Of a stretch of 64,000 nt of DNA, positions 29,608 through 52,906 are shown in pieces. The stretch is taken from positions 40,300,001 to 40,364,000 of the forward strand of contig CM060734.1 in assembly GCA_030704615.1 (NCBI GenBank), in the 5' to 3' direction. This DNA comes from Takakia lepidozioides (taxonomy: Eukaryota > Plantae > Bryophyta). The notes beneath the pieces were generated by a model that was not told the origin of the DNA, ran no database searches, and saw only the letters and a program-made list of their open reading frames with translations. The first letter of the stretch is position 1, and every line of letters starts with the position of its first letter. The translations under genes and the position numbers were made by a program.

Positions 29608-32600
29608 TCTCTAACCATTTTTGTGTATCATCTCTATGTTTCTTGTCGGCCATAAAGAGAAAGGAGAAAAAAAAAATGATCAATGAAATAAGAGAAATGA
29701 GCAAAAGATTAATGAAACGAAAAATCATTTGTGCCTCTCATTCTTTGACCATATTTGTATCTTGTTTTTTAAGTCTTCTATACACTCCTCTACAAAGGTC
29801 TGAACAGGTGTGTCCCATGCGAAGTGATACATGAGACAAGTCGTATGCAATCACGCACAAATGTGAAGGGTTACTACGAAAATGTGAATGGCTTTCTTTT
29901 TCGCTACAACATGGTTTGAGCTTGAACAAAATATTGAACTCTGATCAATATTGATAGTTGTCATAGAGGGTATGTGTGCCCTTTTCTTTGGTATAGAAAT
30001 GTGTCGTCGTCTTAGTTAGACTTTTGGATAGTGATTTATGGGGACATGAAAATATTATGTGTATGGATAAAACATTGGATAACCATTTCATGGTCGCGGG
30101 GTCGTCCCCATGTACCCACAAATTGAGTAACGGATAACATACCATTTGCTCGATGTACACACCTAGTCACCCCGAGGACACTGACCCCATCTTCCTAGGT
30201 TTTGCCACCACCTTACCATGGCCTTGACATGATTTGACACAACCCAGTCATCTAGTTCAGCTCCTCACTCTATGGTTTTTCTTTATAAAGACCGATACTG
30301 AGCTATAAACAAAAAAGTCTTGGGTCAATTAGTCACTTGTGGGTACTTGAGAGCTTTGGAGTCATTGAGGAAGGTTTGGGCAATCACATTGTCTGGTTAC
30401 AGTTGTTAGATGGTGTCTATTTTTCAAATGGAAGGCAATAGTCATATGCGGTGAAATGACACCATAAGGTAGTCTTGCTTCAGGATGAATATTCCTCTCT
30501 ATCTCTAAATGCTGGTATGTACAAGGCCACCCTCGGACCACACCACCCCACATTGGATGCCCTCGATATGTATAGCATGGCCGGGATGCCATCCCGGCCA
30601 TGCATCTGTAAATGACATGTGATGAAGTACTCATATTTGCACATACGGCCTTGAAAATTATCTTGAACTTCATCTCAAACTTGGCCTACTTGGCCTACTT
30701 GGCCTACTGGATTCCACTTAGACCATTTATGAGATTGCATCTTCCAAAAAAATTCTACATTTCTTTTTATAATGTCCGGGTTTTATTTTTGCAGTAATTA
30801 CAAATTCCCTTTCTCTTCTTTTTTATCTAGGAGGCATGTTTCTTTTGTAGATGAAGGATAAAAATATTGAAGGAATATGAAAGGAAAGGATGTAAAATAT
30901 TGAAATAATGATATTCATCTTTGTATGTGAGGGGTTTATATATTTGTAGCTTATTGGTACCTTTTCGAAAGGTACAGATATGAACGATGCTGCAAAACCA
31001 AACAAACATATATTTCTTTTTCATCAAACAGAAATAGTATACCTTCACAATTGAAACTCTAGATCTTCTTGATTCATAGAATTTTTCATTGCCGAGATTA
31101 TGGTCGTTAGAAGGTGTCTACCTATAGAATCTTAGAGATCCATTTGTCAAGTTATTTTACCACTAGTGTAAAACTAGCTTTTACATATTGACATTTGGGA
31201 TTGGCCTAAGTGTCAATCCAGGGGTCGAGGCAGATTAGGCCCTGGAGTGGTTATCTTCACGGCAAGCGCAGGAGGCTCATCTTTCTCGAGTTGAGCCTCA
31301 CCGCGCCTAGCTATGGCGCCGTAGTGTGGATTCCCCATGGCGTGGGGTGCACTTGGCTTGACTTGTATTTGAGTGATGAGGTTATATATGCATGAGTTTA
31401 TGCTTCAGGTTTGTGAGCTCGCATGAGCTTGTGCTTGTATTCTTCCTCCTTATTACTCGAGAAAGATGAGCTCGTATCTGTGAATGCCAGATACGAGTTA
31501 GTTGTAGCACTTGTGGTTTTTGCTTGAGAATGAGAGAAACCAGGTTGTTATGCAGGGAGCACCGTTGAGCTCTTAGTTGTTAGAAGCGGAGGCGATGTGG
31601 GTTACGAGGTGGTAGACCTTGGCATTCGATCTTCAGCTTCAGAGATGAAAGCACCATGCTGCAGGTAATTCCAGAGCACCTTGATGGTTTCAGATTGTGT
31701 ACATGCATGAGCAAACACGATTGGGAAGAGGACCAGTCAAGAGCAGGTTATAGTGGCTTTGGTGGCAAATCTGAGAACTAGCCTTGGGAATGCGAGCTTT
31801 CATTGTGTGACGATTGCAAGACCAAGCGAAAGGGCTGATTTGGCTTGGGGCAAATCAGTGCACTTTGTGGAGTATGTTGAGATTGGGTTTCAATCTCGAG
31901 CTTCAGCATTGAGAGGGCTGGAACATGAGCTAAGAGGTGCGGCAAGACAATGGAATGTGCACCTAGGGTTTTAGAGCTTGGAAGAAGAGCTCTTGCACCA
32001 CAAGAAGAGTGTCTTGTGGCTGGAAATGTAAGCCTTAGGGTTTCAGGAGCTTGGCAAAGGTTGTGGAGTGCTTAGTCTTGTCTTAGAGAGCATCAATGAG
32101 CCAAGGAGCCAAGATAGGGGTTGATACCTCTTGTGTGAAGAGGTTGCATGTGTGGAGCATGTATTCAGCTCATTGAAGCTTCCATCTTCAAGCTTGGAGG
32201 GCAAGCAAGGAAGAGGAAAGGGCTGACTTCCCTTATGTGAGGGCAATGCATGTGTGGAGCATGTTTTCAGCCTGTTGAAGGCTTGTATTTTCAGGTTGGT
32301 GGGTGCAAGAAAGGAAGCAAAGGGGCTGATTCTCTTGTGGTGAGAGTGGGGCATGTGTGGAGCATGCCTTCAGTCCATTGGGCTTTTGTTTTCAAGCTTT
32401 AGAGAACTAGAAGAGAAGGTAAGGGGCTGATCTGCTCTTATGTGACAGTCCGATACTTGTAAAACGTGTTCTTAGTTGGGGTTTTAACCTCAAGCCTAGA
32501 TAGAGCATGGCTCTTGAAGTGGCAGATGTAGGGGGCTGGAATAGGCTCTAAAACAGATGCTATGGCCAAGGAAAACGCTTGAATGAGTGCTCACAAGGGC

Positions 32601-32864
32601 TGGAAACCAGCAAGGCTTGGTTGTTTGCCATTGAGTTTAGTGGCGTGTTTGGGGAGTCTAATTGAGAAAGAAGACTTGGTTTGTGGCAACCATCTTCCTC
32701 ATGGCTTAGGGCTACTATTGGTGGTGTGTGGGAGCTGAAAGAGCAAGAATACCTTGCTGATTTCTTCACAACCGCCATAGCTCGGTGCAAAGAAGCCTAG
32801 AGTCCAAGAGACACAAACCCTAGCTTGGCGTGGCTAAACCCCTTGGAGAAATGGCTAAACTGCC

Positions 32865-33365
32865 ATGAGTGGCCATGGATGGGGCTGTGACAGGCTGTGC
32901 CCTGTGGCCTGTGGGGCTGTGACAGGCTGTGCCCTATGGCCTGTGGGGCTGTGACGGGCTGTGAGGGGCTGTGCCCTGTGCCCTGTGACCCCTGTGACCT
33001 GTGACAGGCTGTGGCTGTGACCCCTGTGACCTGTGTAGGGCTGTGACAAGCTGTGATGGGCTGTGCCCTGTGGCCTGTGGGGCTGTGACCCCTATGACCT
33101 GTGATGGGCTGTGATGGGCTGTGATGGGCTGTGACGGGCTGTGACGGGCTATGACAGGCTGTGGCCTTTGGGGCTGTGACCCCTCTAACCTGTGTAGGGC
33201 TATGAGGGGCTGTGACAGGCTGTGGCCTTTGGGGCTGTGACCCCTGTGACCTGTGTAGGGCTGTGACAGGCTGTGACCTTTGGGGCTGTGACCCCTGTGA
33301 CCTGTGTAGGGCTATGAGGGGCTGTGACAGGCTGTGGCCCGTGTGGGGCTGTGATGGCTGTGACC
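32865..33365. repeat. Low-complexity minisatellite (ggctgtgac / cctgtgac variants) in the 5' region of the gypsy insert
   Basis: Dozens of 9-10 bp gggctgtga(c/t) units, with higher-order ~50 bp repeats. Confidence 0.85.
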
Positions 33366-33769
33366 AGTGATGTGTGTGGGCCTATGCTGGTATGTGGTGG
33401 CCCGTGTTGATCTGTGGACGGCCTGTGCTGACTCGTGGAGGCACTGGTGGATTGCCTAAGGACTGGCATGTCTTGAAGGCCGAATTTTGAAGCTCGTGGA
33501 GGGCGGTTTGAGGAGTATCTTCATGATATTTCCATGGTCATGCAAGTGAGGGAAGAGAGAAGAAAAAGAGTGTTGGGATGAGGGCATGCTGGGGTTAGGC
33601 ATTGCTTTAGCTTCTCTTCCTCGTAGTTTTCTACCCTCTCATTAGGCCAAGATATTTCCGTAGGTGGAGACAAGAGTCAGTCCGGGTTTGGGCTGGGGTA
33701 TCCTTGCAGGAGCAACACCGGTTGTTTTGGTATGGGGGAGTTGTCGTTCTGATTTCTTGTGTTTGGATG

Positions 33770-33930
33770 CTGCCATTGCAAGCTCATTCTTTTGGATCCA
33801 TCTCTCCTCCTTCAGGTTATCCTCTGAAGGCTTTTTAGCCACTACTGACCATAGGCTCTTTGAAGAGAGCAGGAGCTGCATCGTGTAGATCCAACTCTTA
33901 TAGTTGTTGCCATCCAGTGGCTCAACTGTC
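33770..33930 (-). pseudogene. Copia Gag N-terminal fragment embedded antisense in the gypsy 5' region
   Basis: VEPLDGNNYKSWIYTMQLLLSSKSLWSVV...W.QKNELAMA matches the L.G.NY..W...M...L....LW..V copia Gag signature. Confidence 0.65.
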
Positions 33931-35327
33931 CAACCGGTCATCCACCTGCACCTGCATGCTTGACTGTGTGCCATGTTAGCTTACATTTCCAGCCACAAGA
34001 CACTTCTTTTGTGGTACAAGAGCTCTTCTTCCAAGCTCTGAAACCCTAGGTGCACATTTCATGGCCTTGCCGCATTGTGTGGGCGCTTGTTTTTATAGGT
34101 GATTGGTCCAGATTTGATCACCGGCCAGTCCTACAGCATGCTGTCGATGGTGAGGCTGGGGTGATGACCAGTCAGACCATCATTGTTTCTCATGTGGTGA
34201 GGTTGGAGGTGATGACCAGCCAACCATAGGAGTGCTTGCGGTGGATGCAGGTGCAGGTGTAGGCTGTGTTAGGAACCTAGTATTCCAAACCATAAGCCGC
34301 AACAGGTTCTCTACCCAGTTACCTTGTGGAGAGGGGGTTAGGGACATGTTCATGACCGGTTGAGTGACAGTTTGTCAACACGGAGGTGCCACTAGTTGCT
34401 GGGGACAGTGCCGGTTCAAGCACTAGCGATACTAGTGGGTACACGAGACGAGGTGTGCGGTTTAGGCCACCTTCATCTCTTGTGTCTTCTACGGAAGGTT
34501 CTGATTCGGATTGTGAATCAGGAGGACTCACACCGGCGGTGCAAGTTGTTTCCTTGCCATTGTTGTGGGACACAATGGAGGAGATCTATGGAGCTACCAA
34601 GGGGCCACGAAGGTACTTGGAGAAGTGCTCCACCAAGGCATGGCCAACCGGCTTCAGCAGCTAGAGCAGAGGCTCGCTGCCATGGCTACAGCTCAGGTGG
34701 TACCGGCTCCAAGGCCGGATGGTCCACCTTCTGCTCCTGAGGGAGGAGATATGGGAGGCATGGGATTCATGTGCGGAGCAGCACTACCACTAGTGCAGGT
34801 GGAGTCTGCTGCAGCCGTGACTCAAGGAGCAGCACGAGTTCCTGAGCCACGAGGTGCAGAGGTGGAGTTGGATCGTGGGGAGGCAAGCCGTCAAGCTAGG
34901 CTCCCTCAATCATTCACATTGGCAGAGACAGTGTTGACGCCATCCATAGCACCTAGTTCTCGCCCGACTGTTACCGAGGCGGAGGTTACTATGCCATTGG
35001 GGAGAGCTACACGGGTAGCACCACTACCTAGTGTTGCCAAGGCTACGGTAGCTAGTGTGCTGCTGGGAGCGGCCACATCTGTGTGTCAGGCTCCATTGTT
35101 CTCGGCTACCATGATTGCAACGCTGGGGTAAGACCAGCCGAGGTGTTCAGGATGGCAGCTACACTCTGTGAGAGTGGGGAGGTTACTTCATCTTCTGCGG
35201 AGATAGTGGGAGGTGTAGTGCCAAAGGGATCCTCAGATTTGAGGGTCAAGACTGCCACGGCGGCGCCATGGCAAGCTGCAGCTGCCAGGTTGATGGAGCT
35301 GCCAGCTAGCCCAGCATTGAACGCGCC

Positions 35328-35867
35328 ATGGTGACACCTGGAGTTGTCATGTTAAACAACCAGGATGACATTTTCTGTTTGAGTGGACCGGCAGGCAAGA
35401 GGTACCGGCCACTGCGGGTCTTGTTGGACTCGGGAGCTCAGCCATTGATGCTGGGCAGAGCTGCTATTGCAGGCTTGGGCCTCACGGAGGCGGATATGGA
35501 GCCTTGTCCTTTCCAGATACAGACGTCTCTGGGAGGATCGGAGCAGGCTCGGGGCATGACACGGCATGAGTTGGCTATCAGACTACGGCCGGATCACCCT
35601 ACAGATGGCTCAGTGTTGCAAGCCAAGGCCATTGTGACAGACGCGGTCTCGTTCAATGTCCTGGTTGGTGGGGCAGTGTTGTACCCCATGGGCTTCACCC
35701 TGGATTTTTGGGAGGAGTCAGCTTCCTATAGGCCTGGATGGCAGTCAGGGGAGGGCCGGCGTGTGCAGCTCCCTATGACATTCATAGGAGGAGTTGCGGT
35801 TGCCCAGCGGGGCAAGATGCCGATACTAGCAGCATTCACAACGGCAGTGAGTTGGCCTGGAGAGTAG
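35328..35867 (+). pseudogene. Retroviral-type aspartic protease domain of gypsy pol
   Basis: RVLLDSGAQPLMLG (D-S-G active site) ... FNVLVGGAVL. Confidence 0.8.
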
Positions 35868-36089
35868 CCTGAAGGCAACGCTCATTCAGAGGATGTGCCA
35901 CCTCCAGGAGAGCAGGAAGACATGTATGGTATGGTGGAGTTGCCTGCCATGGTTGCTCAGACTCCATTGTGGGGCACGAGCAAGGATTTGCAGCGAGTTG
36001 CTAATCGATAGGTGCAACAAGCTTGGGTGGAGGCTTTTATACCATTAGGAGAGTAGGAGAATGCGGGGATTGCACCAGGACCACCTTAG

Positions 36090-37075
36090 TTGTCTCCATT
36101 GGACACCACACCTATTGTGTGGCAGTATCCGGATGAAGGCATTTGTCTTCTGGACTTGTTTGGCGGGATCAGCACCGGATTGGCTGCTGTGTTACAGGCA
36201 GGTTTACGAGTTCGGCGTTACATGTATGTGGAGAGAGATGAGACTGCACGACACATTTCACTTCGCCATGTTGCTCAGTTGGTGCAGCAGTACCCTGAGT
36301 TGTTGCCGATGTCTGCAGTTCGTGGATATCAGCAGGCTTTGCCTGGAGACATTTTGTTGCTGGGGGCGCAGGATTTGAAGCGGGTTGGCTCCATTGATCC
36401 GGTAGTGGCAGGTTGGCCCTGCCAAGGGCATTCATCAGCCAAGCATGGCAATGGATTGCAAGACTCAAGGTCGGGTCTGTTTTGGGAGATGGTGCGGGTT
36501 TTGTGCCACTTGCAGCTTCATCAAGCTGTATCTCCAGCATACATCTTGGAGAATGTGCCACTGATGGACAATTCTTGGGCCAGGGTGATGGCCAGTGTGC
36601 ATCAAGTCCGGTCGTGGCTTGGGTCAGCAGTGTTGATAGATGCAGCTACAGTGGGGACACGGGCTCATCGTCCACGGCTATGGTGGACTAACTTGATGCC
36701 ACCCGAACTACTCAAGCGTGCATTTGATGGGGTGCAGTGGCCAGCATACCTCACAGTGGATAGCATTTTGGACACAGGGAGGTTGTCTCAGCGTGTGAGA
36801 CATGATGACCGTTCGCCTTTGGCAGTGGTCAACAAGGTGGGTCAACCACGAGCAGCATTACCTACACTACTCAGCTTCCCAGGATCGCATGCTTTCCGGG
36901 ATAGTGGACCTGGCCTCTAGTGGGATGCTTAGTTGTAGCAGTTAGTGGAGCCTAATGCTGACAAGCGTGAGCGGGCAATGGGTTTTACCACTAGTACCAC
37001 GACGGTGCCGTCTCTTTCTGAGGCATTACGTCGTCGGGTGTTGGGGCAAGCAATGGATTTCAATTGCTTGACCTG
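36090..37075 (+). pseudogene. C5 cytosine DNA methyltransferase domain, in frame within gypsy pol
   Basis: Motif I LDLFGGIS, II YVERDE, IV VAGWPCQG (catalytic PC), VI ILENV, VIII RAHRPRLWWTNL, IX ERAMGF and X RRRVLGQAM. Same reading frame as the protease (35328) and RT (37548). Internal TAG stops at 36918, 36930 and 36936. Confidence 0.9.
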
Positions 37076-37449
37076 GATTATCAGCTTGGCTATGGCTGAG
37101 CAACGCAGAGTGCGGAGTACACTTCCCTCGATGGTCTCTCTGCCTACCGAGACGGTACAGGCAGTGAGTGGGGGCGAGCATGAGAGGACCACGGGGTGCA
37201 GGCATCCATGGCACACGTGGGAGGTGCTCGAGGTTCAAAGGGAGTTGACAACCAGGGCGGCGGTGATGGATGAGGTTGGGGATTTTTCTTGGGTTGAGGA
37301 AGTCCTCGAGGATGAGATGATGGGGCAGGATGAGGCCTTGTCATTGACTAAGCAGGCAGGGAATACTGCTCAAGAGGTTGCAACATAGCAACCACTGGAC
37401 GCGTCCTCTACCTCTAAGCCCACTGGACTTAAGGTTGCAGTTACGGAGG

Positions 37450-38912
37450 ACAATTGGGAGCCTGACATTGGACCCATTGTCACCGGAGGAGAGAGACGAC
37501 GTATACGGCGGTTCCTGAGGGCTTACAGGAATTGCTTTGCCTTCAACTTGAAGGACTTGGGAGCACTGAAGGGTCAAGAGATTCGTATTGAGTTGGCCAA
37601 TGACACGCCAATCTTTCGGAGACCCTATAGATATAGTGACATGGAGAGGTCTTTGATTCAGATGAGGACTCAAGATCTCTGGGAGGCTGGTTTGGTGGAG
37701 CTCTCTGGTGGAGAGTATGCTTTAGCCACAGTGATGCTAGCCAAGAAGGATGTCTATGGCAATTGGACGGAGAAACGTATGTGCGGTGATTACCGGCCTG
37801 TAAATCGTCAGACCAAATCCGATAAGTATGCCATGCCAACACCAGAGGAGATCTTTGATGTCATTGGGCATGCTAAGGTCTTTAGCACTTTGGATTTACG
37901 ATCCGGATATCACCAGTTGTCAATCAAGGAGGCGGACAAGCAGAAGACGACATTCTGGGGGATCAATGAGCATGGCAAGGATTGCCTATATCAGTGGCGG
38001 TTCTTACCATTTGGGCTTAAGAATGCTCCTGCAGAGTTTCAGAGAGTCATGGATAGGATTCTAGCAGGGGTGGACTTTGCTCGGTGCTACATAGATGACA
38101 TCATCATCTTTAGTGCTATGGTGGAGGAGCATGAGAGACACCTTCAGGTGGTATTGGAGCGCTTGAGAGCGCACGGATTGAAGTTGCATCCGGGGAAGTG
38201 CAAGTTTTTCCACAACCAGATTGAGTATCTGGGTCACATGATATATCCTGGAGGATTGGGGGTACAATAGACTAAGGTAGAGGCCATTGCACAAATTCCA
38301 CGCCCCACGGATGTGAGCCGAGTTCGAGCTTTCATGGGGTTGGCAAACTATTATAGACGGTTTGTCAAGGGATTTAGTGCCATTGCAAAGGCTCTAACCA
38401 AGCTGACCAAGGTGGACCAGGAGTGGCAGTGGAAAGATGAGCAGGAACAAGCTTTTCAAGAGCTCGAGGCGAGGTTGACCTCGGCGCCTATCCTGAGACG
38501 ACCTATCAGGGGGCGTCGCTTTCAGCTGCATACGGATTGGAGCATGCTGGGGCTTGGAGCGGTGCTCACACAGGTGGATGATGAGGGAAGAGAGTTCGTA
38601 GTGGCTTATGCTAGCCGCTCGAACAACGCTGCAGAGGCTAAATACAGCTCATATGAGGGAGAGTGCTTAGCTGCAGTGTGGGCCGTGGCACACTTCAGGT
38701 GCTATCTATACGACAATCTCTTCACCATTGTCACGGATCACCAGCCACTCAAGTGGTTGATGGAGTCAGACAAGCTTACGGGGAAGCTTGCACGGTGGGC
38801 ACTCATACTCCAGGAGTATGACTTTCAGATTGTGCATCGACCGGGTTTGGTCAATCGGGATGCGGATGGATTGAGTCGCAATCCATGCACGAGCCAGCAG
38901 AATGACACTTGA
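37450..38912 (+). pseudogene. pol: Reverse transcriptase and RNase H of gypsy pol
   Basis: RMCGDYRPVN, FSTLDLRSGYHQ, LPFGLKNAPAEFQR, YIDDIII, KC.F....IEYLGH; FMGLANYYRRFV, LHTDWS..GLGAVL, VAYASR, YSSYEGECLA, TDHQPL, RWAL.LQEYDF, NRDADGLSR. Confidence 0.95.
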
Positions 38913-39230
38913 GCTCGGCGGCATGGTGAGACGGACGAGGAGATGGTGTCGGGATGGCATGCATCTGTCTTTTTGTGTATCTTGGCATCGGGAGGTCAGG
39001 TTGGACCTACAACAGGGATGACTGTAGACGGAGTGTCTGAGGACCCTGAGGCTAGTGATGAGCCAGGTGGTACCCGAGATATACATGAGGATTTGGCTGT
39101 GTTGGACTACCTCTGTATTGGAGACACGGCAGCCACTGTGACTGCCAAGGAGAGGGATCGGATCCTGCAACGAGCCAAGAGGTTCAAGTGGGAGGGGATA
39201 CACATGCTTTGAGTATGGGAGGATGGTTGG

Positions 39231-40407
39231 GTGAGGATTGTGCCTCACCCCACACAGCGTGCACGGTTAGTGCGGCATGCCCATGAGGAATTGGGGCATT
39301 TTGGAGTGCGACGCACTCACAGTTTACTGCAGGGGCAGTATTGGTGGCGTGGAATGCATACAGAGGTGCAACAGTTCGTGGCTAGGTGCATGGTGTGTGA
39401 CAGGGTGCGTGCTTCATTCAACGCCCCTACACCACAGTTGCATCATTTACCAATCATGGGGTTGGGCTACAGGTGGAGTCTTGACTTCGCATGACCGTTG
39501 CCACTGACTATGCGCCACCACAGATATGTGTTGGTGATGGTGGAGCACTTCTCCAAGTGGATTGAGTTGGTTCCATTGCTTGACAAGGCTAATGAGGGGG
39601 TTGTGTATGCATTCTTGGATCGTGTGCTTAGCCGATTCGGTGCCAGTTGAGGTACTCACGGACCAAGGGAGAGAGTTCTTGGGGGAGTTTTCAGGCTTTG
39701 TGTGATAAAGCCTTGATAGACCACCGCACCACTTCTCGGGATCATCCTGAGGCCGATGGCTTGGCAGAGAGAGTTGTTCAGACGGTGAAGAGGGGTTTGC
39801 GCAAGTATGGTTTGCAGAAGGGACACCTAGGAGATTGGGATCTTCAGGTGCCTTGGTTAGCCATGGGCTACAAGTTCAGCAAACAAGCATCACTTGCCTC
39901 CTTCTCACCATATTCCTTCTCTTTGGCCGAGAGCCGGATTTTCCTGCAGCCATTCGTAGGGACACTGCTCAAGTCCTTAACCTTGACGATCCAGAAGTGT
40001 GGGTATGTGCATGTGGTCAGCGTGCAGAGTTGTTCAAGAAAGTCATGCCCATGGCTTTTGAGAACCTTGCCATTGCACATCACCGTGATACGTTGAGGTA
40101 TGCCACTATACGTGGTGGAGGATATCGTCCTGGGGTTCGGAGGTTTAGCCCTGGTGACTATGTTTATTTGCAGCAGACTACTCCTACGACCCTGGATATT
40201 ACTGCAGGGCGTGTTATTCTGAGGGTTCGAGAGGTGTTGCCCTCAGGAGTTCTGATCTTGGAGGGTCAGGATGGCATGACTTGGAAAGACCATGTGCGTA
40301 ATTGTGCGTCATGTCACCTTCCCAATGTCGATGGCAGAGTTGACCCAAACTTGGCAGTGGTACCTGCAGGTTTGAGGTGCATGCTTTGTGGGTCCGCCAA
40401 AGGGGCA
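39231..40407 (+). pseudogene. Integrase of gypsy pol (HHCC and DDE), ending in the first half of a PHD finger
   Basis: HEELGHFG...CMVC; WSLDF; EHFSKW; LTDQG; HPEADGLAERVVQTVK; frameshifts near 39650-39680 and ~39915; ends LRCMLCGSAKGA at the CACTA junction. Confidence 0.9.
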
Positions 40408-40429
40408 CACTACAACAGATGAGCGTTTT

Positions 40430-41000
40430 TATGACTTCACATATGACTATTTTTTCAGTCTTATATGCGTTCATGACTACATCACTCTGTAGTGAAAAAA
40501 GCCTTGTCATAGCGACTAGTTTTTAGGACTGCGTTTTCCTGGGGTCCTGCTGCAGAGAGGGTTGCAGTCACAACTATATGACTAATATATGACTACATTG
40601 TCTGTTGAGCGCTGCCTACATGAAGAGGCTTCAGCGGGACACGTGGGCCACTGCGCAAGCGACACGTCATGCATTCGTCAGGGGATCATATGACTATATG
40701 TCTGCAAAGTGATGCCTACATAGAGAGGCGACGGATGGACACGTGCGCCACTGCGAATTTGACATGTCACGACTTCTTGCCATGATCATATGACTACATG
40801 TCTGCACAGTGATGCCTACATGGAGAGGCGCTAGCGGGACACGTGTGCTATGGCAGATTTCATACGTGGTGACTACATGACTCGCTCATATGATTACAGG
40901 GATGTCTATATGGAGAGTTGTTAGCGGGACACCTGTTGCACTTGAGATGTGACATGTGGCACACAGACAAAATATATGACTAGCATATATGACTACGGAT
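40430..41000. repeat. CACTA left subterminal repeats, including ~4 copies of a ~100 bp unit
   Basis: atatgacta...tgcctacat.gagaggc...gggacacgtg recurs near 40590, 40690, 40790 and 40890. Confidence 0.8.
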
Positions 41001-41553
41001 CTTTACACGTGGTGAAAATATGGATAAAGAATGTCGTGTCATATACTGCCACGTGTTCTAGTTTGAGCAAGAGTGATGCCACGTGTCATCAAGATTGTTT
41101 TCCGAAATAGTTTATATTTTTAATGTTCATATTTTATTTTTTTAGTTTTCATTTAATATTTAAAAGAACAGGGAGATTGCAGCCTTGGAAATTTTTTTAA
41201 TGGTATTATTTTTAATATTATTATTTAAAATGAAAGTGAATTAAATGATTTAAAATCTTCATTACATGGTGAAATTCCAACATGAAAACAGAATGGATCC
41301 TCCTGCATACTATCAACCACAAGGAGAATGAAAATAGTCAACTACAGGGCAATACAAGCCCTATAAATCACATTACAAAAATCCAAATGAGACCAATGTC
41401 CCAATGGACACCTCAAAAGCCACAAGGTCAAAAAATCCATGCCTCAAAAGGCCCAGCCAAAAACAAGCAAGCCCACACATGGGCTGAATTGTTGTAGCTA
41501 GTATGTTCTAGTGCTATTAGAATCAAGAACTCTGTTAAACAATACAATACTGA

Positions 41554-44500
41554 CTATCCCTTCCGCAGCTCCATAAGTTTCAGTAACTTTAGACTCCAAA
41601 GTGTTGTCTGGCCAACCACCTGCCCCAACTCGGTCTGTTTCCTAACACCATTCACATATGGTAGAGGGGTGTTACTGACACATGCCTCTTTGATGTACAC
41701 ACAAGCATAATCAAGGGGCACAGCAGGGTACCCGTAACCCACCACAGCACCTTGAAGAGCAACAATCAGCCCTACTCCACATTTCTTGCGTTTGGAGTTC
41801 ACATCCAACAGCCGAACCTCGTCACCCACCCTGAACTGTGATCCCAACTCCACACAAAAAAGAACACGATGTAAAACCCATGACATACACACGACTAGGA
41901 CACTCAACATTTGCGAATTAAAGAGAGCCCCAAGGTTGGAAAAAATAAAACAAACAAGACAACGGCCTGGACTTACTCCATTTGCAGTCTCCAGTGGTGG
42001 TGAGACCTCTTTTGGGGGGCTACTCGCCGGGTCGACACTCTTGCCCCTCGTCTGTACCGGCTTGTCGACAATATCACCTTTGTTTGTCACAAGTTCCTGT
42101 GTCACAGACCAGAGAACAACCAGGAAAGCAATGAGCAAACAGGAATAGTGAATAGAAACAAAATCCAAGTATGAATCAAACAAAAAAAGCCAATATGAAA
42201 AGCTGCAAAGAAAACCTAGTATTAATCAAGCAACCGAGGAGAAGCATCCAGGAAAGCAATGCAATGAATGAACCCACAAAATTGTAGCCTCTGGAGCACT
42301 GTCAGAATGTTTGTACCTTCACAGTAGCAGTGTTGTATGGTTGTTGTCCGAAAACAGGCTAAGACTCCAAAAACTTGGGAATACTGGCAGCTTTTGATGC
42401 CTTCCACAAGAAAGGCCACAACACCTCTGTTAGATACTCATCAGTTGGTGAATCTGGTTGCACCTTCCATGGCTCTGGAAAAATCCCACTGAAGGGAGGA
42501 TTGTTTGCCGCCTTTCTTGGTGTGTCGTCAACAAGAACATTGTCCTCATAAGTCCATTTTGGCCAGTCTGCCCACACTGTAGACAAGTTCTTGAAATATA
42601 ATGGTTTTGAATCAGACCCCTTACGGCATGGGAAGACTGGATCCTCGTCACAGTGAAGGGCATCCCACTGGAAAACCAGGTTAGTGTGGGCTGCAAAAAT
42701 ATAGTCCACCATTGGGAAGAAGTTGCGAGCTTGGCAACAAGACCACACCGCCACCTCAAAGTGTTCAAAACATTTTTGCAAAAAGTCATAACAGCGTGGT
42801 CTCAAAACTACCATCTTCTTGCCACACATCTTCCCCACAAAACCTTTGGGAAGGGATGCAGGCCCATTAGCAAAATGAAAAGATTCACATAACAGACCAT
42901 TTAAGTCCAGAATTAGTAAATGCTTCCTCGTTGGTCCAGGAAGTAAACTGACATTTGGCTTCAACATGTGAGCAGGAGAAATTAAAGCAACCTGCTTGTT
43001 TGTTTTGTCCCCGTCTGCATCTTCCTCCCCATTTAAACTCCCATATACCTGCATACTAGAATCCAGTGTGCCCGGCGGCTCTGTCACCATTGCCCCCTGG
43101 ACTGCTACTGCCTTTGTACGTGGCAAGGGCTGAATTTCCACGTGTACCTCACAGCTGGCCTTCCCTGTATCCTGCTGCTACTCGGTCAAATTCAAAAGAT
43201 CATCAGTGACAGGAAGACATAAGGGCTTAGAGTGAGCACCAGTTACCGTCTGAAATTGGGATTCCAAACATTTTGATACTGTCACAGCAGACGTATCCAT
43301 CGTAGATGTCACTGGTCCTGCGCCTGGTAGATTAATCCCCAATCTGGTCACAATGGCTTTCTGGTACTCAATCACACCTGCATCTGTAATTTTAATTCTG
43401 CCATGTCACGTCCTTGTGATTCCACCAGTTTGTCCAAGCCATCCATCCTGCCAACTACTGTAGAATATGCGAGACTTCCCTCCTGCCAATCCATGAAAAC
43501 TTGCCCAAGTATGAATCAAACCAAAAAAACCTAGCATGAACAACCATTGGAAAGAAAACCCAGGCCAAAAGCCTTGAAAAAAACCCTAGCAACCTATGAT
43601 GCAGCAACCACTCTAGCAAACGTGGAAAACACACTTACCCGCCTGTCACTCCTAGCTGACAACCGTGACACTGAACCCTCTTGAATTTCATATAATGTAG
43701 GAGGGCACCCTGATAGTGTTTCCTACAAATTAATCCATGCCACAAACAAACCCATGCCAACAAGTCAGTAAGCAATGTGAGGGCTGACTATATACACATA
43801 GCAATTCAATGAGGAACAAAATACAGAGTCGTGATGATGCCACTTACCAAGCGTGCTTCCACCATTGCCTTCCCACCACGGCCAGTCTTGGTAGGATTCT
43901 GAATTGCACCATTTGCCTTCTTCATGTTGCCCGACACTTTGTGGAACACCTCTGTCTGCCAGTAACTTACAAGCTTGTTCCATACCTCGTCAAATACAGT
44001 AATGGGTTTCCCCTTACCACCCAACCACGCAGTGTGTGCTTCATAACGCTGGCTCTTCATTATTCTGCCAATTGTTTGTTTTAGGTGGAAGTCTTTTAAC
44101 TTGTGTGGCGTATATGAAAATAGCTTAGCCAGGTGATCTCTGATTTCGTATACAACTTCATCAGGTTGGTTGTTGATGGCAAGGGAACAATCTAGCTTGC
44201 GATAAGCCTGTCCTTTAAGGGCAGCGTGCCATACATTCCGGGTCTGACCATACGGGGCTCCTTTGAGGTTCGTCAAAATCACCGTGGGAGGAAGACCTGC
44301 AGCTATTCTCTCTTCCTTCACCTTGGCAGCTTCAATTTTGGCTGAGCTATTAGCCCTCCTTAAAGCATTGGTTCTATCATTCTTTGAAACGGCACCCTCC
44401 CCTCCTTCAGAGACCTCCGTGCGCTCAGGAGAATTCAAAGCAGGATCCTGCCAAGTAGGGACTGGTGGCCATGGCTGTTGGCCAGAAGGCCGAGGACCAT

Positions 44501-45671
44501 ACTGGCCATACTGTCCATAAGCAGGAGGATATTCCGGTGGCCTGCCACCCCCATAGCTATTAGGGGGTGGCAAATATGGTGGAGGAGGATACTGGCCATA
44601 CTGCCCATATGGAGGAGCACCATATTGACCCTGACCATACTGAGTGCCAGACTGTGGGTACTGAGGCATACCATAATAAGGTGGGGGTACTGGTGGCACA
44701 GAACCCACAACGATGGGAGAGTTAGGGCCACCTCCTGCGTTCTTGTGGGCGCCATCTCCATTGCTAGCAGCAGGGATCGTGGATCCAGTGCGCTTGTGCT
44801 TGCCCTGAAAAGAAATTCCCCCAGTACAATGTGGGTGATTACACATACATATAGGCAGCAAGCAGCAAATCCTTGAATTCAATATAACAAACTGGAAGCA
44901 CATATCATTTGTAAAGACAAGATTACCCAAAACTCAGTATGATCTTGGGCAGTAAATCTCCCAAATTTGATTGGCCCCAATGATGTCCTCCCAGTACATT
45001 TTTGAGCCCTCTTAGGTATGGGGTGTTCCTGAAATCCATAGCAAGAATTCAAATGGACAAACCTGATGGGTCCATGAGAAGTATCCCTCCAAGTTTTACT
45101 GATATTCTGGGTGCATAAGTAACCCAAGTATCTCTATAAGTAGCCATTGTAGCTTAGTACCAGGACGTTGGTTTCATGGGGCAAAGAATTTGAACACACC
45201 TGAAGTCTACATTGGCCTGACATCATGCCTTTGGCACTTCAACTTGTCTAGTGGAAATCATTTGTGATTGTGCCTTGGCTGACCCCTGCATTGTCCAACT
45301 TCCCTGTCTTGACAGACATACCCTATCTCTTCGTGATTTTACCAAAAACATACATAATTTGAATCATGGTCATTGTGAAGAACTATAACTCACAGACGGA
45401 GAAGGTGTTCGTAGTGTAGATGATGGGCGTTTTTGTCCTGCGACATGAGCATGGGCATGTTCTCCTCGGCTTGCCGTGGCATCCGCCGACGACGCACTCG
45501 CCTCGCACTGGCGTGGGAGGAGTGGATCGTCCTCATCGTCCTCAGAAGAGCCCTCATGCAGAATCGTAGTCTTCATCGTCTTCAGTCTGGCACTTTGCCT
45601 TGCAGGACCTTGATCCCTAGCTTTTTCCTTCGGAGCGCGTGGCTTGCGAGGGCGATTCGCTCCCGCAAGCC
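41554..45671 (-). pseudogene. TnpA-like multi-exon CACTA gene: Ptta/Transposase_24-like region, FCP1/NIF-like HAD phosphatase, Tnp1-like C-terminal domain
   Basis: 43850-44800: VWNKLVSYWQTEVFHKVSGNMKKANG...KTGRGG. 42359-43141: LLILDLNGLL, VLRPRCYDFL..CFEHFEVAVWS, KNLSTVW, VLVDDTPRK. 41554-41850: VGDEVRLL...G.G......G...VP.DYACVYI......PLPY.......LGQVVG.TTLW. GT-AG-like junctions between blocks; in-frame TAG stops at 43178 and 42359. Confidence 0.65.
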
Positions 45672-46309
45672 TGCACAAACACCTCCATGACCTCCCTCTC
45701 AAACAATCACAAACAAATGCAAGCATACATACCCTAATACTCTTAAGCCTACGCTGAACCACAGCCGCACCCTACCAGGACGTAATGGCTGCCCACGAAT
45801 GACGGCGGACATCTCCCGCCTAATGACACACCCTCCTCAAACCTAATCGTCACTCACTGCATGTTGTTTGCCTCTCTGTTTGTACAAGTCGCAGCTACTC
45901 GCCCCCATTTGTGCTATGAAGCTTATGATCGCTGTAGGAAGGTTAGAGGATAAGGCGAATCGCAAGTTTAGTGGGTGGGTATCCAAAGTCAGGAACTAAA
46001 CTCACCCATCTATCGACTGCTTGAACGTTGCTTCCACCTCCTTTATGGCAGCAATCCGGCGCTCTCGGAACTTCTCGTACTCAGTGAGAGGGACTGTCAC
46101 TTCGAAGACCTTCCGCTTCACCATGGACACTCAGAAACGATACTTATAGTATACTATAGATATAGAAATAGCACATTGGCAGCTGGTGCAAAACTAGAGA
46201 CAATGCACTGTGCGTAGCATGCAAAGAGGGAAGGGGTGACGTTCAAAGCATGTACAGTGCAGGTGGCGACGGATGCGTAGGCGTAGAATAGATGACCGTC
46301 TATGGCGAA

Positions 46310-49300
46310 TGGAAGAAGCTTATGCCACAAGGAATGGGCATACAAAAATGCTATGCAACTGCGATGAGTGTCATGGAGGAAAAGTACTGTTGTTGGAAAC
46401 AGTGAGGAATCATTACATGATACACGGGAGGGATCCTCTTCTCCAACGCTGTTCTCTTCCGGTAAGATCGCCACTTTCCCTTCAGCACTTTAGTTTGAAT
46501 TTTGAATGCAACGATCCTCTTCTCCACATGTCGACATTTCGTTGGGTGATTGTAGTCAAGAAGTCATAAGATACAGACGTGACTATGACTACGCCACTTC
46601 CGTTATCACTTTAATTAATGCACATGTCGTGTTTTCATTGGTCATGTGTAGTCATGTAGTCATATATGACTAAGTAAGTGACTGCAACTATGACTTCAAT
46701 GGTTACAAATGTCGTGTTTTGATTGGGTGTATATTCATAAGATACATACGTAAATATGACTGCATCACTGCAACGTCACCGTGCCTCCTATGTCATAATA
46801 TGAACAAGTGTCACATCGTTGTTGGTCCACTCACAAGATGACTATTGGGATGCAGGGATGTGAATATTCAGATGATGAAGACGAAGGCCCTGCGGCACAG
46901 CGGGAGCCCAATGTCACAGAGAACGCAGATGAGAGTGGTGGATTGGAGGTAGAAATGCAGCGTGCATTGCAGGAAGCGTTTCTCTTTGCAGATGCAAACA
47001 GAGAGGACCCCATTCATGGTGGAACCGATCACACATTTGCCGATCATGACGATGATCTCGACGATTCCGGAGACAATGAATTTGATGAGAATGCTCACCT
47101 GCACGTTGATCCCGAGTATGATAAACTCTTCCGACAGTCGCAATGTCCACTTTTTGAAGGGTGCTCCATCAGCCGGCTGCAAGCAACTTTGACGTTGCTG
47201 AACGCATGCACTACCCACAAGTGCACCAATGCATTTGTGGATGAGCTTCTGGGATTGTTGCGTAAGAGTTTTTTGCCTAAAGAGAATTCATTGCCGAAAA
47301 CTCACTATGAAGCAAAAACCATGATTGCCAAGATGGGATTGCAGTACACCATGATTCATGCCTGTGAGCGTGGTTGTGTACTCTTCCGTGGGGAGTATGA
47401 GAATGTAGACATTTGCCCAGTGTGCCGCAGTTCCCGTTACATTCCAGGTCGTGGAAGTGTGCCCAAGAAAGTATTGCGACACTTCCCTGTCATTCCAAGG
47501 TTGAAACGTATGTACCGATGTAAATCGATCGCTAACCTCATGACATGGCACGACAGACATAAGAGCCAGGATGGGTTGGTTCGACATCCAGCTGATAGCA
47601 AAGCATGGAGACACATTGACACCACATTTGCGGATTTTGCTGCAGAGCCACGATCTCTGCGATTTGGATTGGCCTTAGACGGTGTAAATCCCTACGGAGC
47701 TCAATCCACAAGTTGGAGCACATGGCCCGTTCTCTTGGTCAATTACAATCTGCCTCCGTGGTTAATGACCAAAAAGTTCTTTGTCATGTTAGCGCTACTG
47801 ATTCCTGGTAAGGAGTCTGTTACCTCGGACAACGTAGATGTTTACCTGATGCCCCTAGTGGAAGAGCTACTGGAACTATGGAGAGGGATTGCAGCTCATG
47901 ATGTTTCCCGTCCTCGTGGTCAACGCGAATTCACACTGAGGGCAGTGTTGATGTGGTCAATCCATGACTACCCTGCATATGGCTTGCTCTCAGGTCAAGT
48001 GACGAAAGGTTATGCTGGTTGTCCAGCTTGTGGACCCGGGGTGACTTCACAGCAGTTACACACATGTGGAAAAATTGTTTTCCTAGGCCACCGAAGATTT
48101 TTGGCCCGCAATCATCCATATAGAAGGTCAAGAATGTTCAATGGCGCTACTGAGCATGGAACTCCTCCAAAAACGCAGACTGGAACACAAATCAAGGACC
48201 TTGCAACAGCTCGCACTGCATGGGTGGAAAACGGAGGGACGCCAGATAGCAGGACAGACCCAGCAAAAACTCATGGAGTTAAGCGATTGTCAATTTTATA
48301 TGTCTTACCTTATTGGGAGGTAATTCCTTCATGGCCTTTAAATTGGCTGTGTACATTTTTGCGTTTTCTGTTTAAATTGTGATGAGTAAATGCTCAATTG
48401 CTTATGTGTTCATTTTGTAGGGTCTCCTCATCCGCCACACGTTTGACGCAATGCATTGCGAGAAGAACTTGGCTGAAAATATTATTAAAACTATCTTTGG
48501 TGAGAAAGACACATTGAAAGTTCGCCGTGATTTGGAGCTACTTGGGATGCGCCGGAATTGTGGCTACAACGTGATCCTGACAGAGCAGATACGTTAATTA
48601 TGCCTCCTGCCCCTTATGTCCTCACTGAGGCTGAGTTACAAGTCTTTCTGGAGATTGTGCAGAACTTGAAAGTGCCAACAGGCTACGCATCAGCTTTCAA
48701 AAAGCATGTGGTGAAGAAGAAGTTGTCTGGCATGAAATCACATGACTATCATGTGCTCATGCAGCAAATTATACCGCTTGCTATCCGTGGGCTCATGCCA
48801 AGTGGTCCTCGAAGGGCATTTTGCGAGTATGTCGTGTATTTAAGAAGTTGTGTGCAAAAGTGGTGAATCCTGTAGAGTATGAGGAATTGAGAACTGAAGC
48901 AGAGTTCTCACTCTGTGTCTTATAGAGAAGGAGTTCCCACCATCATTTTTTGATGTGATGACACATCTGGTTGTTCAGGGCTACGTAAGAAACATGGCAA
49001 GGCCCGAGGGGAGCATGGCAGAAGGATACCAATTTGAAGAAGCATTGGGTTTTTGCACAGAGTATATGGCAGGATTTGATGGAAGTGTACGAAGGGTGTG
49101 GGATGCAGATGAGGCAGAAATGTGGTGGAACGTGAAGTTGTGGAGGAGGAAGTTCTAAAGCCCGAAAATTGAATGACCTGTGTGATATTGTACATGAGTA
49201 CATCATTCAGAACCATCCTCGTCTATCAGTCATGTTGGGGTAAGAAATCTACTTCATTGACATTCAGATTTCCAAGTTTTAGTCATTTATCATTAGTTGG

Positions 49301-50325
49301 CATATGGCGTCTTTTCAATCTCCCACGCCACCTCTGTCAATCTCCTGGCTGACCCTCGGATTGTGACAGGATATATGAAGCAGAGTCCACACGGATAGAA
49401 GCCAGACGACGCTTGTTTCGTGAGGAGCAAGGGCTGGAAGGCATGAGCAATCCCACGGCAATTCAGTACCCTCCTGATTTGCATCCTTGTCCTCCATTTG
49501 CTGTTTGGCTCCCTCAAGGTGTACGGGATCATCTCTCAATTCAATCAGATGGGCTTGATCCTACAACACGTGAGGAATTACTGGATCTTTCAAGGCCTCC
49601 ATCATTTACTGCCCTGTCATTCAAGAGTATGACAGCGTATGGTAACCATTACAGGGTTACATCCCCCGGCATGAACACAACAAGTATGGGTCTTTTGATT
49701 GTGGAGTCTCATTGGTTCTAGCACCAACCATTACCAACAATTCAGGCAATGACCTGGAGGAACCTACAAGATCTATGGGTCTTATAAGGGAGATTGCAAA
49801 ATTGACTATGCCAAAACCAACCTATAGTGTTTTGTGTTCGTGGGTACGGGCGAGTCGCGTGGGTCGTCCAACTATGTCAATCATGAAGCGGATGATGCTG
49901 GCTTCACACTGTCAATTTTAACAGATGATTCCATCTTCTGAGCAAACTTTGTGTTTTCCTGGCAAGGGTGATCAAGTGTTTTTTTTTTTTTTTCATGTGT
50001 GAAGGAGCCGGGGGGGTGGAAAGTCGTCCTTGAGAAGAGCCAACGAGCACGTAGAGTGGTCTGCGACATATCAATTGATAATGATGATGTGGCGGAAGTG
50101 GAAGGATTGTTAGCCCCACAAAGACTAGAGGAGACTCTGGTTACTGATGGCCCAACATGCAGCCGAGCGGTACCGGTTACTCCAGAGCAGGTGGCCTCCT
50201 TGTACCTCCGAGCACCCCATATACGTGGTGATGATGTTCAGCCAACCCTTGGACAAGATCAAGTCTGTGATGAAGACAGTGATACATGTAGTGACCCAGA
50301 CATAGATGAGGATGATGAAGATTAG
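46310..50325 (+). pseudogene. CACTA Tnp2/TnpD transposase (Transposase_21 family), frameshifted in the 3' half
   Basis: MLCNCDEC (associated domain); IHACERGCVLFR...CPVC..SRY; HPADSKAW; LALDGVNPYG..STSWSTWPV..VNYNLPPW; DVYLMPLVEEL; IHDYPAYG; FDAMHCEKN; MKSHDYHVL; RPEGSMAEGY. Confidence 0.9.
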
Positions 50326-52792
50326 ATATGCGCGATTTGTGCACTCCAGTTATAGACCATGCATGATAGTTTAAGGTGGTAACACTCCATTCGCATTCCC
50401 ATTAAGATATCATGCTTGGACACTGGATTTTATGATCAATTATGGAGTGCTTTCCTTTCAGCACCCTTTATTCATTTGTTGTTGCAATTGGCTTTGGACC
50501 AACCCGTGCTGGTACCATTGCCATGGGTTCTGCCTGCAATGTTTTCTTGCCATGGATTCGCCACACGCCACAAAAGGCCATCCAGACCATCCTCTGGAAA
50601 TGCTCCAATGTTGTTTCAAACATCTCCACATTGCAATGGATACAACACTGACATTAGATGAGTGAAAGTGAGACTAGACCTCCAGCCAGCCGGCTTTCCC
50701 ACATCAAATTGAAGGGGATCTGTAGATTATAGATAACGGCTGTTGCCTTCTCAATGTCTTTTCCAATCACCTCTGCAATGAACTAGGGTATAAGATCCTT
50801 CAAATCACAAGTTTGAGCATCACGCACAAGCCACTTATGGGGATAGAGTTTCCAATGCGAACCATTGGTCTTTTATTGATAGCATTGTTGTAAAATACAT
50901 GGACCAACATGGTCAATTTCGGGAATGACATATAGTACGCTTTCATGTACTATGTAAGCATGCAACTATGTACCAGTGACGTGGCTTGTTCGCCACTTAA
51001 CCTGTTTGCCCATTCAGCCATCTCCACATTGTCATGGATTTTGCATGCTGGATTGTGAGGCCATCCACACCGTCCTCTGGAAATGCTATCATGGGGTTTC
51101 AGCTATGTCCACATTTCCCTGGATTATGCCTGCACGAAGCAAGGCCAACTGCATTCAGCACCCTCCACTTTATTATAGTATTGCAGCAACATTCAAAGCA
51201 CTTCAATTTGTATCCATCGAAAACATCTAGGCTGGAAAAAGACATTGTTGCAGCAGAACTTAGGAAAGTACTTCTCCCCTTCCACTACACACGTGAAATG
51301 AAAGAAGCCAACCAACAGCATACTAGCCAAGAAAATATGAAACGAGCCAAGAAAAGAGCCAATATATGCAGTGAAGGTCGACACTAAATGAAACTTATCC
51401 AACACTTACATTAGAGGAGGGAAGCTAAGTCTTACCTCCATAAGCTTGCCCACATCAAATTTGGGAGCTTTCAGAATTTTTCTTTTCCGGTTGAATGAAC
51501 TTGACTACAAGATCCTTCAAATCACATGTTTGAGCTTCACACACAATGAACTTACAGGGGATTGAGATTCCAATGCGAACCAGAAGTCTTATATTGATAG
51601 CATTGTTGTAAAACACATGGACCAACAATGACAGTCTCTGGAATGACATATAGTACAGTAATGACATATAGTACAACATGCCGCTTCCAGTTGACCATCT
51701 ACCCATGTAGGTTTCTTGTAACTATCCTTCCACAGGGAATCATAGGTAATGTGGAGCTTGAAATCCAGCCCTCTTGGATGAATCTGGACCCACACTCTAT
51801 CCCTGCTCCTTCAGTTATCCATGCCTCTGACAGCCTACAATTCTACCAGCAAACACCCCAACCATACTGGTGTGGAGTTCTTCCCCAAAACACCCCAACC
51901 CTACTTATCACAATCTGAAATGCATCTGCTTCTCTCTGTAGTCCAACAGGCATTCGCCTTTTTGTCTCCATTGTCCCACCATTGGGGTCGGAAAGTGTTC
52001 ACCCCAAAGCTTCTCCTCACCTCTATTATATGTTTTTGGATACTTCCCTGCTGCCACACTGGCAGTAACTTGCCAAAGTTACTCCAAACCACCACAGATC
52101 TACCCAACGACCTAACTTACAGAATTCAATATGCATCTTGCGGTCGAGTCTGATGAGAGGGCAACACAGGCTGAAATAGGTTGAAGAAGAAGGTGCCCTA
52201 CCTGTCCTGACCCATGGAGGATTTGACCGATGACCTCTTGTGTGTGCTGCTTGTGTCTGTAGTCAGGTAATGTCGGATTGGTCTGTCAGATCGAACCACT
52301 ACGGCGTAGATGAGTAGTCAGAGATTGAAACACGCTTGCTAAGACCAAGCTGACTCTCCCAAGAATGGCGAGCTCGCTTCTCCTCGTCTCGTCTCTTCCT
52401 CCTCTTCTCCTTCGTGCATCATTTGCTCAACGCCTCCATTCCACGCCTTATTTGCATTATATGTGCCTTCAAAATGACACGTGTAGTGTTGTAGTCGTAT
52501 AAATAGAGCTCTGAAACCATCTTCAGTCATGGAGTCATAAGATTCTATGAAACGTCGTCCACGTGTAGTCAAACATATCACACTAGTCATATAAACCATC
52601 TCTGTCATCATGGTCAACAATGTTTGACCAATGCTCCCTAACTTTCCGGAGTCATGTAGTGATATCCATTACTACAAAGTCATAAAACTAAAACTGTAAT
52701 GTATTTCAGCGCTCTGTAGTCATGTACCTAGTGCAGTTTTTATGACTCCGCCAAAGCCGTAGTCCTAAAAACGCTCGTCTCTTGTAGTGGCA

Positions 52793-52906
52793 GCCACCAT
52801 GCTGGTGTGTGATCGATGCTCAAGAGGTTGGCATATGGGATGCTTGACACCACCTCTTGAGAGGGTTCATGATGGAGATTGGTTATGTCCACACTGCTTG
52901 GGATAG
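52793..52906 (+). pseudogene. Second half of the integrase C-terminal PHD finger
   Basis: ATMLVCDRCSRGWHMGCLTPPLERVHDGDWLCPHCLG* continues in frame from CMLCGSAKGA once the CACTA and one gca are removed. Confidence 0.9.

Follow-up and report, generated by a model that had tools for sequence, protein, structure and literature searches.

A DNMT3-like methyltransferase upstream of a conserved, probably leaky stop codon in a Ty3/gypsy retroelement family of mosses and liverworts

How a mobile element of a land plant might carry and produce its own DNA methyltransferase (DNMT) is the question raised by a 64,000-nucleotide stretch of the moss Takakia lepidozioides (contig CM060734.1, positions 40,300,001 to 40,364,000, forward strand), referred to here at its full length as the window. 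It holds a Ty3/gypsy retroelement with a C5 cytosine methyltransferase between the protease (PR) and the reverse transcriptase (RT), which the initial annotation described as built into pol. Our analysis supports, on sequence comparison, a DNMT3-like C5 methyltransferase at this place throughout the family and in a land plant, and it revises the assignment to pol: the DNMT closes a first open reading frame (ORF1, Gag-PR-DNMT), and RT, RNase H (RH), integrase (INT) and a PHD finger lie in ORF2, beyond an in-frame stop that is conserved and has a context of the readthrough type.

The window copy is a decayed, dead member of a high-copy Ty3/gypsy family (Table 1). Between 35328 and 39641 one frame holds 12 stops, all TAG or TGA, and no frameshift; reading through them gives PR, DNMT, RT, RH, and the zinc finger and start of the core of integrase, as the initial annotation had proposed from ATG-based ORFs that lie in the same frame as the stop-to-stop ORFs used here. 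A Pfam search on the translation with X at the stops agrees in order and detects the predicted methylase, with matches to DNA_methylase (PF00145; E 1.4e-9, 1.7e-10 for the domain alone), RVT_1 (1.6e-31), RT_RNaseH (7.7e-35) and Integrase_H2C2 (4e-16). The protease scores weakly (E 0.0066, below the cut-off) and matches the same region of all close relatives. Only residues 394-602 of the Marchantia protein P0003 match the gag remnant (tblastn; P-numbers denote protein homologues from database searches), other copies show loose ends at 34617 and 34632, and integrase is shifted in frame near 39642, 39688 and 39912. The PR-RT-RH-INT domain order, TG...CA termini, a short target-site duplication (TSD) and a polypurine tract are the Ty3/gypsy hallmarks present.

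The methyltransferase domain is intronless, with its catalytic motifs inside the gypsy polyprotein region, and the motif series read earlier from the letters alone was recovered in order: I (LFGG), IV (PCQ), VI (ENV), VIII (HRPR), IX (ERAMGF) and X (RRVLGQAMD), with the catalytic Cys codon at 36420 in motif IV and ENV at 36549 in motif VI. The suggested DNMT3-type resemblance also holds, since the closest solved structures by sequence are DNMT3A (E 2e-7), followed by a DRM-type entry and by DNMT3B (2e-5), with HhaI at only 0.02. The closest predicted fold is again DNMT3A (TM 0.59, E 1e-11, pLDDT 78), in a model of the 276 residues up to the first stop, with motifs IX-X outside it. This affinity is that of the best match by sequence and fold, as the trees described below held no host DNMT3, DRM, CMT or MET1. 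Viral contigs gave weak phage-type methylase matches alone (17 loci, best E 2e-11). Wherever synonymous divergence is measurable, the DNMT is under purifying selection, like RT and protease: dN/dS between the metagenome loci L045 and L046 is 0.13 for DNMT, 0.15 for RT and 0.12 for PR, and between L019 and L022 it is 0.17 for DNMT. Of 34 stop-type DNMTs, 33 retain PCQ and all 34 retain EN.

The stop between DNMT and RT was examined in 69 gathered metagenome loci (L-numbers), 31 of which hold both the C-terminal half of the DNMT and the RT start. An in-frame TAG or TAA lies 11-22 codons ahead of the RT match in 29 of these (six pairs are the same insertion, leaving about 23 distinct) and is absent from two (L077, L078); L048, missed by the filter, has the same stop. 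Immediately 3' of it, CAR-YY is found in 27 of the 29 loci, with strict CARYYA in 6, and the remaining two differ at one base, the first position. Among 289 other in-domain stops of the same loci, CAR-YY follows seven and CARYYA none, and the in-frame CARYYA background is 0.2-0.4%. Because the second codon after the stop varies among CCA, CTA, TTA and TCA (Pro, Leu, Leu, Ser), it is the nucleotide pattern and not the residue that is kept, and the signal persists between lineages that share only 48-68% identity in the DNMT and have flanks that do not align. TAA replaces TAG in 8 of the 29 loci, scattered over the tree of copies, possibly through decay.

This pattern is clearest in the unbroken relative L046, where an ORF1 of 1369 codons (Gag-PR-DNMT) is followed by TAG CAG TTA and then by 1047 codons (RT-RH-INT-PHD) with no other stop. 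The window has TAG CAA CCA at the junction of two in-frame ORFs, and its closest full-length homologues stop about 80 residues past the DNMT, at the place where the window has TAG 37386. In addition, 27 of 133 database homologues are (Gag-)PR-DNMT proteins without RT, 23 of them ending 17-183 aa past the DNMT. We place the DNMT at the end of ORF1 because of this conserved stop with its CAR-YY(A) context, the sole stop in L046, and the stop at 37386 is almost certainly programmed and not a product of decay. By comparison, three stops within the DNMT domain are specific to the window copy (36918, 36930 and 36936). The last of these, TAG 36936, was considered as a signal and rejected: although CARYYA follows it, its position is within the DNMT, and 6 of 8 relatives have an open codon there. 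Other copies of the window's genome differ at stops 36009, 39210 and 39492, among the differences listed.

Our analysis suggests that the stop is probably passed by ribosomal readthrough. Rice RIRE2 and silkworm Kamikaze are said to use CARYYA too, reportedly after Gao et al. in 2003. Tobamoviruses, benyviruses and pomoviruses carry UAG-CAR-YYA as their type I readthrough motif, in which UAA also works, and in the available text on these viruses (PMC3542737) a single in-frame stop with a six-nucleotide 3' signal likewise sets the upstream:downstream ratio. The Gag-Pol of murine leukaemia virus (MuLV) is made by about 5% readthrough; the stop stands after gag in MuLV and in the stop-separated Tca2 and SIRE1, as far as the accessible part of PMC2194720 describes them, whereas here it stands after protease and DNMT. 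The family would offer a natural CARYYA-type signal sited after protease and an accessory enzyme, and a leaky stop would explain the annotation of its products as stand-alone hypothetical genes of roughly 1250 aa.

On this basis a working scheme can be outlined. The transcript would start in A1 and mostly yield Gag-PR-DNMT, and, if tobamoviruses and MuLV are a guide, readthrough in a few percent of cases would add RT-RH-INT-PHD, which would place the DNMT at Gag-level stoichiometry with a DNMT:RT ratio far above one. The element protease would cut both products inside the particle; the DNMT would then likely methylate the new cDNA before or at integration, such that the new copy arrives pre-marked, and the PHD finger would likely guide integrase or tether it to chromatin. 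The DNMT is tied to the cDNA or integration step because sister layouts place it, as a fusion, beside RT or in the interval from RNase H to integrase. Taken as a whole, this chain from a leaky UAG through DNMT packaged in excess to methylation of the element's own cDNA is modestly probable.

Several observations weigh against it. The stretch was not found in any run recorded as RNA, which is evidence neither for nor against expression, and 37386 is absent among the 40 copy differences listed, a result silent on whether own-genome copies share the TAG. The Sphagnum-type loci, the largest group with 22 members and with a linker matching Sphagnum fallax P0020, have CAACCC or close variants and not CARYYA (the sixth base is C, once G), and they carry an ATG two codons past the stop and a T-rich run before it. 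In five NCBI gene models, of copies in Marchantia and Sphagnum, DNMT is joined to RT/RH over the stop region; the three that were read, P0006, P0007 and P0020, use different junctions. Near-identical decayed copies give a DNMT dN/dS of 0.35-0.71, where DNMT and RT alike drift toward 0.3-0.7, and dS is saturated for most distant pairs. The CG observed/expected ratio of the window copy is 0.54, which does not separate self- from host methylation; CG and CHG ratios were set aside as an uninformative test of self-methylation. Finally, the related KnitGypsy-Dnmt3 of Klebsormidium nitens was inactive in yeast, a result that its authors call inconclusive in the text available (PMC5890265).

The same layout and readthrough would also fit an abundant DNMT acting in trans in the nucleus, on genomic copies as a self-limiting control of copy number, on competitors or on host chromatin. 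Placing the DNMT ahead of a leaky stop would give an excess over RT and integrase beyond the need of one cDNA per particle; the family is very abundant in its host, with 65,820 contigs of one public run (X1) matching the stretch, where depth is not a copy number; and host-methylome and rate-limiting roles were both raised by De Mendoza et al. in the portion of PMC5890265 at hand. Most relatives, however, have the DNMT at 1:1 with RT and integrase (39 of 133 homologues are RT-RH-DNMT-INT-PHD, or 31 of 133 in a second count), so that excess is not required, and the ORF1 DNMT has no attached targeting domain, which leaves action in trans unlikely.

Bypass of the stop by splicing or by restart at a downstream ATG, which would remove the need for readthrough, is less likely still. 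Ogre elements separate GAG-PROT from RT-RH-INT by a partly spliced intron, according to the available text of PMC6317226; a TAG is a possible 3' splice site, the Sphagnum-type loci provide both a T-rich run and an ATG at codon 3 after the stop, and some gene models splice at the stop region. Such an intron is at odds with a single in-frame stop that lies in no stop-filled spacer, and with an upstream linker that in all 9 sequences checked stays open and has a length divisible by 3, that is about 50% G+C, with U making up 17-33% of its last 30 nt, and that is under coding constraint (pN 0.23, pS 0.63 for L046 versus L073). Moreover, the conservation sits 3' of the stop, and the scattered TAA variants, even if possibly decay, speak against a splice acceptor. 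Restart would also lack an early Met in four sequences, where the first Met of ORF2 comes at codon 117 in L046, 117 in L073, 85 in the window and 48 in L019, inside RT.

A DNMT domain kept for a non-catalytic or RNA-directed role, such as binding or modification of genomic RNA or of RNA-DNA hybrids, or as a particle scaffold, is improbable. KnitGypsy-Dnmt3 gave no DNA methylation in yeast, as reported in the accessible part of PMC5890265, and among RT-RH-DNMT-INT elements 9 of 47 domains have E or S for P in motif IV, with 5 more lacking the motif. Against this role, the catalytic Cys and the motif VI Glu-Asn are invariant in alignment A3, and the closest structures are DNA methyltransferases. 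A one-off chimera, misassembly or captured host DNMT3 pseudogene with every stop due to decay, which a dead copy (12 stops, gag deletion, frameshifts) in a repeat-rich region might suggest, has a negligible probability and is refuted by dozens of independent loci and proteins that have this order, the unbroken L046, the shared stop, the intronless domain under purifying selection, and coverage of 34300-40420 in all 30 bins of four public runs with depth of the same order over DNMT and RT.

The breadth of the family was assessed from its relatives, which hold the DNMT at the same place, as would be expected had the initial annotation seen a family trait. The DNMT region has 32 matches, including 14 Marchantia gene models (57-70% identity), Sphagnum fallax and Closterium, as well as a Calypogeia homologue at 71% identity, and a profile search returned 538 clusters (50% identity) at E up to 1e-30. 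No vascular plant was named in the homologue searches, which is weak evidence as few matches carry names. Three layouts were found: stop-separated DNMT and RT, as in the window; DNMT fused ahead of RT (Closterium models, L077, L078, P0218, P0223, P0232); and RT-RH-DNMT-INT-PHD, the commonest in the matches. Elements of the last kind are probably green-algal, with the host inferred from few labels. Loci L056-L069 and further proteins form a very large gypsy family of this RT-RH-DNMT-INT-PHD order in long open ORFs, of which no published description was found in the literature searched. The 1417-aa protein P0032 combines a C5 DNMT with a Dam domain and is reminiscent of EpiLTRs.

Trees were built from 26 (RT) and 33 (DNMT) chosen rows, with fuller FastTree versions of 62 and 88 rows, all unrooted and without host DNMTs. 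The stop-type elements fall on one side of a branch in both (SH-aLRT 99 for RT, 92 for DNMT), and so do the RT-RH-DNMT-INT-PHD elements. These topologies would fit one old DNMT capture followed by relocation within the polyprotein. A wider reading joins these strands: an old, very large Viridiplantae gypsy lineage (the 538 clusters) with one DNMT moving within its polyprotein, whose moss and liverwort branch put the DNMT upstream of a virus-type leaky stop, with a methyltransferase on every Gag subunit and hundreds of de novo DNMTs per particle, serving as a mobile writer of the host methylome, and with split repeats without a tRNA primer. We hold it tentatively, as a doubtful extension.

Among known systems, the closest described kind appears, by sequence features, to be KnitGypsy-Dnmt3 of Klebsormidium nitens, which combines DIRS-like repeats with a Gypsy body (de Mendoza et al. 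2018, available text of PMC5890265); it was compared by description, no Klebsormidium sequence having been identified among the matches. Both have the Gypsy domain set, an intronless Dnmt3-related DNMT under purifying selection, and DIRS-like split repeats, seen here as A-coding-B-A-B in L043 and as a B-A junction in L023 and L046. KnitGypsy-Dnmt3 differs in having DNMT and RT/RNase H in one ORF, a feature found here only in the sister group with DNMT fused ahead of RT, whereas a conserved stop intervenes in the window and 29 of 31 loci; the host here, moreover, is a land plant, namely a moss, and related elements occur in liverworts and in Sphagnum. SymbioDIRS-Dnmt3 and SymbioLINE-Dnmt of Symbiodinium share a retroelement-borne C5 DNMT but are tyrosine-recombinase or LINE elements, not DDE-integrase gypsy elements, and in yeast the SymbioDIRS-Dnmt3 domains, taken in isolation, show de novo methylation of CG (same portion of PMC5890265). 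The EpiLTRs of Cymbomonas and Euglena are long terminal repeat (LTR) elements that also join a DNMT to a chromatin-reading domain, but their DNMT is DNMT4-related and accompanied by Dam and a chromodomain, where ours is DNMT3-like with a PHD finger and without Dam; the same 2026 preprint (bioRxiv 10.64898/2026.05.21.726589) mentions 'streptophytes (Gypsy-DNMT3)', and its main text, as far as available, does not name land plants. Ogre/Tat elements (PMC6317226, available text) have a roughly 270-bp spliced intron, normal LTRs and no DNMT, against a single stop, split repeats and a DNMT here.

A 2019 review stated that retroelement methylases were lost on land and described them as absent from 'land plants, such as tracheophytes' (PMC6338049). 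No report of land-plant members or of a conserved leaky stop was found in the literature searched, with Repbase and most subscription papers outside reach and absence from print therefore unproven; searched by term, the accessible texts of PMC6453930, PMC12344493, PMC10952607, PMC6317226, PMC5009743 and PMC3441728 hold no land-plant or readthrough report, and the available main text of PMC6317226 has 0 matches for methyltransferase, PHD, Marchantia and Klebsormidium. Relative to that literature, the land-plant members and the stop-separated DNMT/RT layout are likely to be new, as judged from sequence. Retroelement DNMTs, described from dinoflagellates, Klebsormidium, Cymbomonas and Euglena, are here present in mosses and liverworts. 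Many family gene models lie in Marchantia polymorpha, for which genetics, bisulfite sequencing and DNMT mutants are available to test the role of the DNMT. In that species P0003, P0004 and P0009 (Mp4g09160, Mp8g17980 and MARPO_0204s0011), annotated as hypothetical host genes, are ORF1 (Gag-PR-DNMT) of the DNMT element family, and such mislabelled genes may distort DNMT counts in Marchantia.

Table 1. Features of the retroelement copy and of its nested transposon (window coordinates)
Feature	Position	Strand	Remarks
Whole retroelement copy	31145..53353	+	termini TGTC...GACA; layout A-coding-PPT (polypurine tract)-B, without second A-B block
5' non-coding part (repeat A and leader; inner borders unmapped)	31145..34430	+	
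gag remnant	34368..35322	+	start motif near 34577-34617; internal deletion of ~370 codons; C-terminal part with two frameshifts
Aspartic protease	35328..35867	+	DSG 35427-35435
DNMT3-like C5 cytosine methyltransferase domain	36114..37097 (about)	+	PF00145; PDB sequence and fold searches
ORF1 C-terminal tail, open, 96 codons	37098..37385	+	
Conserved stop TAG, then CAACCA (UAG-CAR-YYA, type I readthrough context)	37386..37394	+	
ORF2 start and reverse transcriptase	37395..38267	+	YIDD 38088-38099; PF00078 residues 814-972
RNase H	38430..38819	+	PF17919/PF17917
Integrase (H2C2 finger, core, C-terminal part), broken by stops and frameshifts	39249..40360	+	PF17921, tblastn
PHD finger, first part (start approximate)	40370..40407	+	tblastn of P0021, P0024
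Nested CACTA DNA transposon, splits PHD finger, foreign to retroelement	40408..52789	.	CACTAC...GTAGTG, 3-bp TSD GCA
PHD finger, second part, and ORF2 stop	52790..52906	+	PF00628 E 2.7e-10
Polypurine tract	53152..53164	+	same tract at same place in 8 metagenome loci (blastn) and L046 (by eye)
Repeat B (about 190 bp)	53166..53353	+	ends CGCACGACA, as in relatives

The borders of the element further bear on its integrity. A 4-bp TSD, CATT, flanks it at 31141-31144 and 53354-53357, and two other copies of the 3.55-kb host unit have an empty site with a single CATT (near 19628 and 23174). Together with the TGTC/GACA ends, these sites show that the element is one integrase-made, DDE-type insertion and that the DNMT did not enter as an insert of its own. 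No TSD-bounded unit was found other than the whole element and the CACTA insertion in the PHD finger, so the possibility that the DNMT had its own duplications, raised with the initial annotation, found no support.

The window contains no LTR pair, and the terminal organization was read from relatives. L043 has the order A (342 bp)-coding-PPT-B (113 bp)-A-B with TSD AAGG, and L023 and L046 show an internal palindromic B-A junction, GACA-NN-TGTC. L047, L051 and the window have a reduced A-coding-B form with intact 4-bp TSDs, as would be expected if B1 and B2 recombine; TSDs of 4 bp are seen in L043, L047, L051 and L034. No TGG-starting primer site, a feature not compared with tRNAs, directly follows A1 in four of four loci. 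Given such split repeats, LTR-pair finders would probably miss the whole family. Repeat A of the relatives has no nucleotide match in the 5' part (31145-34430) of the window copy. Within this part, a 2.1-kb stretch (31938-34074) is bounded by 96-bp inverted repeats (92%) and holds a copia-type gag start (33642-33980, minus strand), a 102-bp tandem repeat and a TGTG-rich minisatellite; it is probably a nested insertion, and by eye no TSD was seen around it.

The CACTA insertion is 12.4 kb long, and the PHD finger that it breaks at 40407 picks up again at 52790. It carries a Transposase_21 match at 46799-48382 (plus strand), a weak Transposase_24 match at 43806-44933 (minus strand), 100-bp subterminal tandem repeats at 40587-40898, and an ORF with an NIF/CTD-phosphatase-like domain at 42359-43177 (minus strand; PF03031, E 2e-15), apparently transposon cargo. 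Around the retroelement, window positions 19575-57127 hold a 3.55-kb unit in three tandem copies, 91-95% alike, with an internal inverted repeat of ~550-bp arms. Two sequences interrupt the second copy, a stretch with RNase H (about 23.9-26.9 kb) and a copia gag (28499-29320, minus strand), and the DNMT retroelement interrupts the third. This triple repeat was considered as a candidate for LTRs and rejected, as it is the target unit that received the element.

Elsewhere in the window, two long minus-strand ORFs (319 and 392 aa) lie at 59349-61523, and a spliced host JmjC histone demethylase gene (JMJ25/27-like) occupies 6311-11493, its best named match being from Sphagnum. In a set of 26 named homologues, with no hornwort or lycophyte among them, the JmjC protein places the host probably among the mosses, clustering with the 6 moss sequences (SH-aLRT 97).

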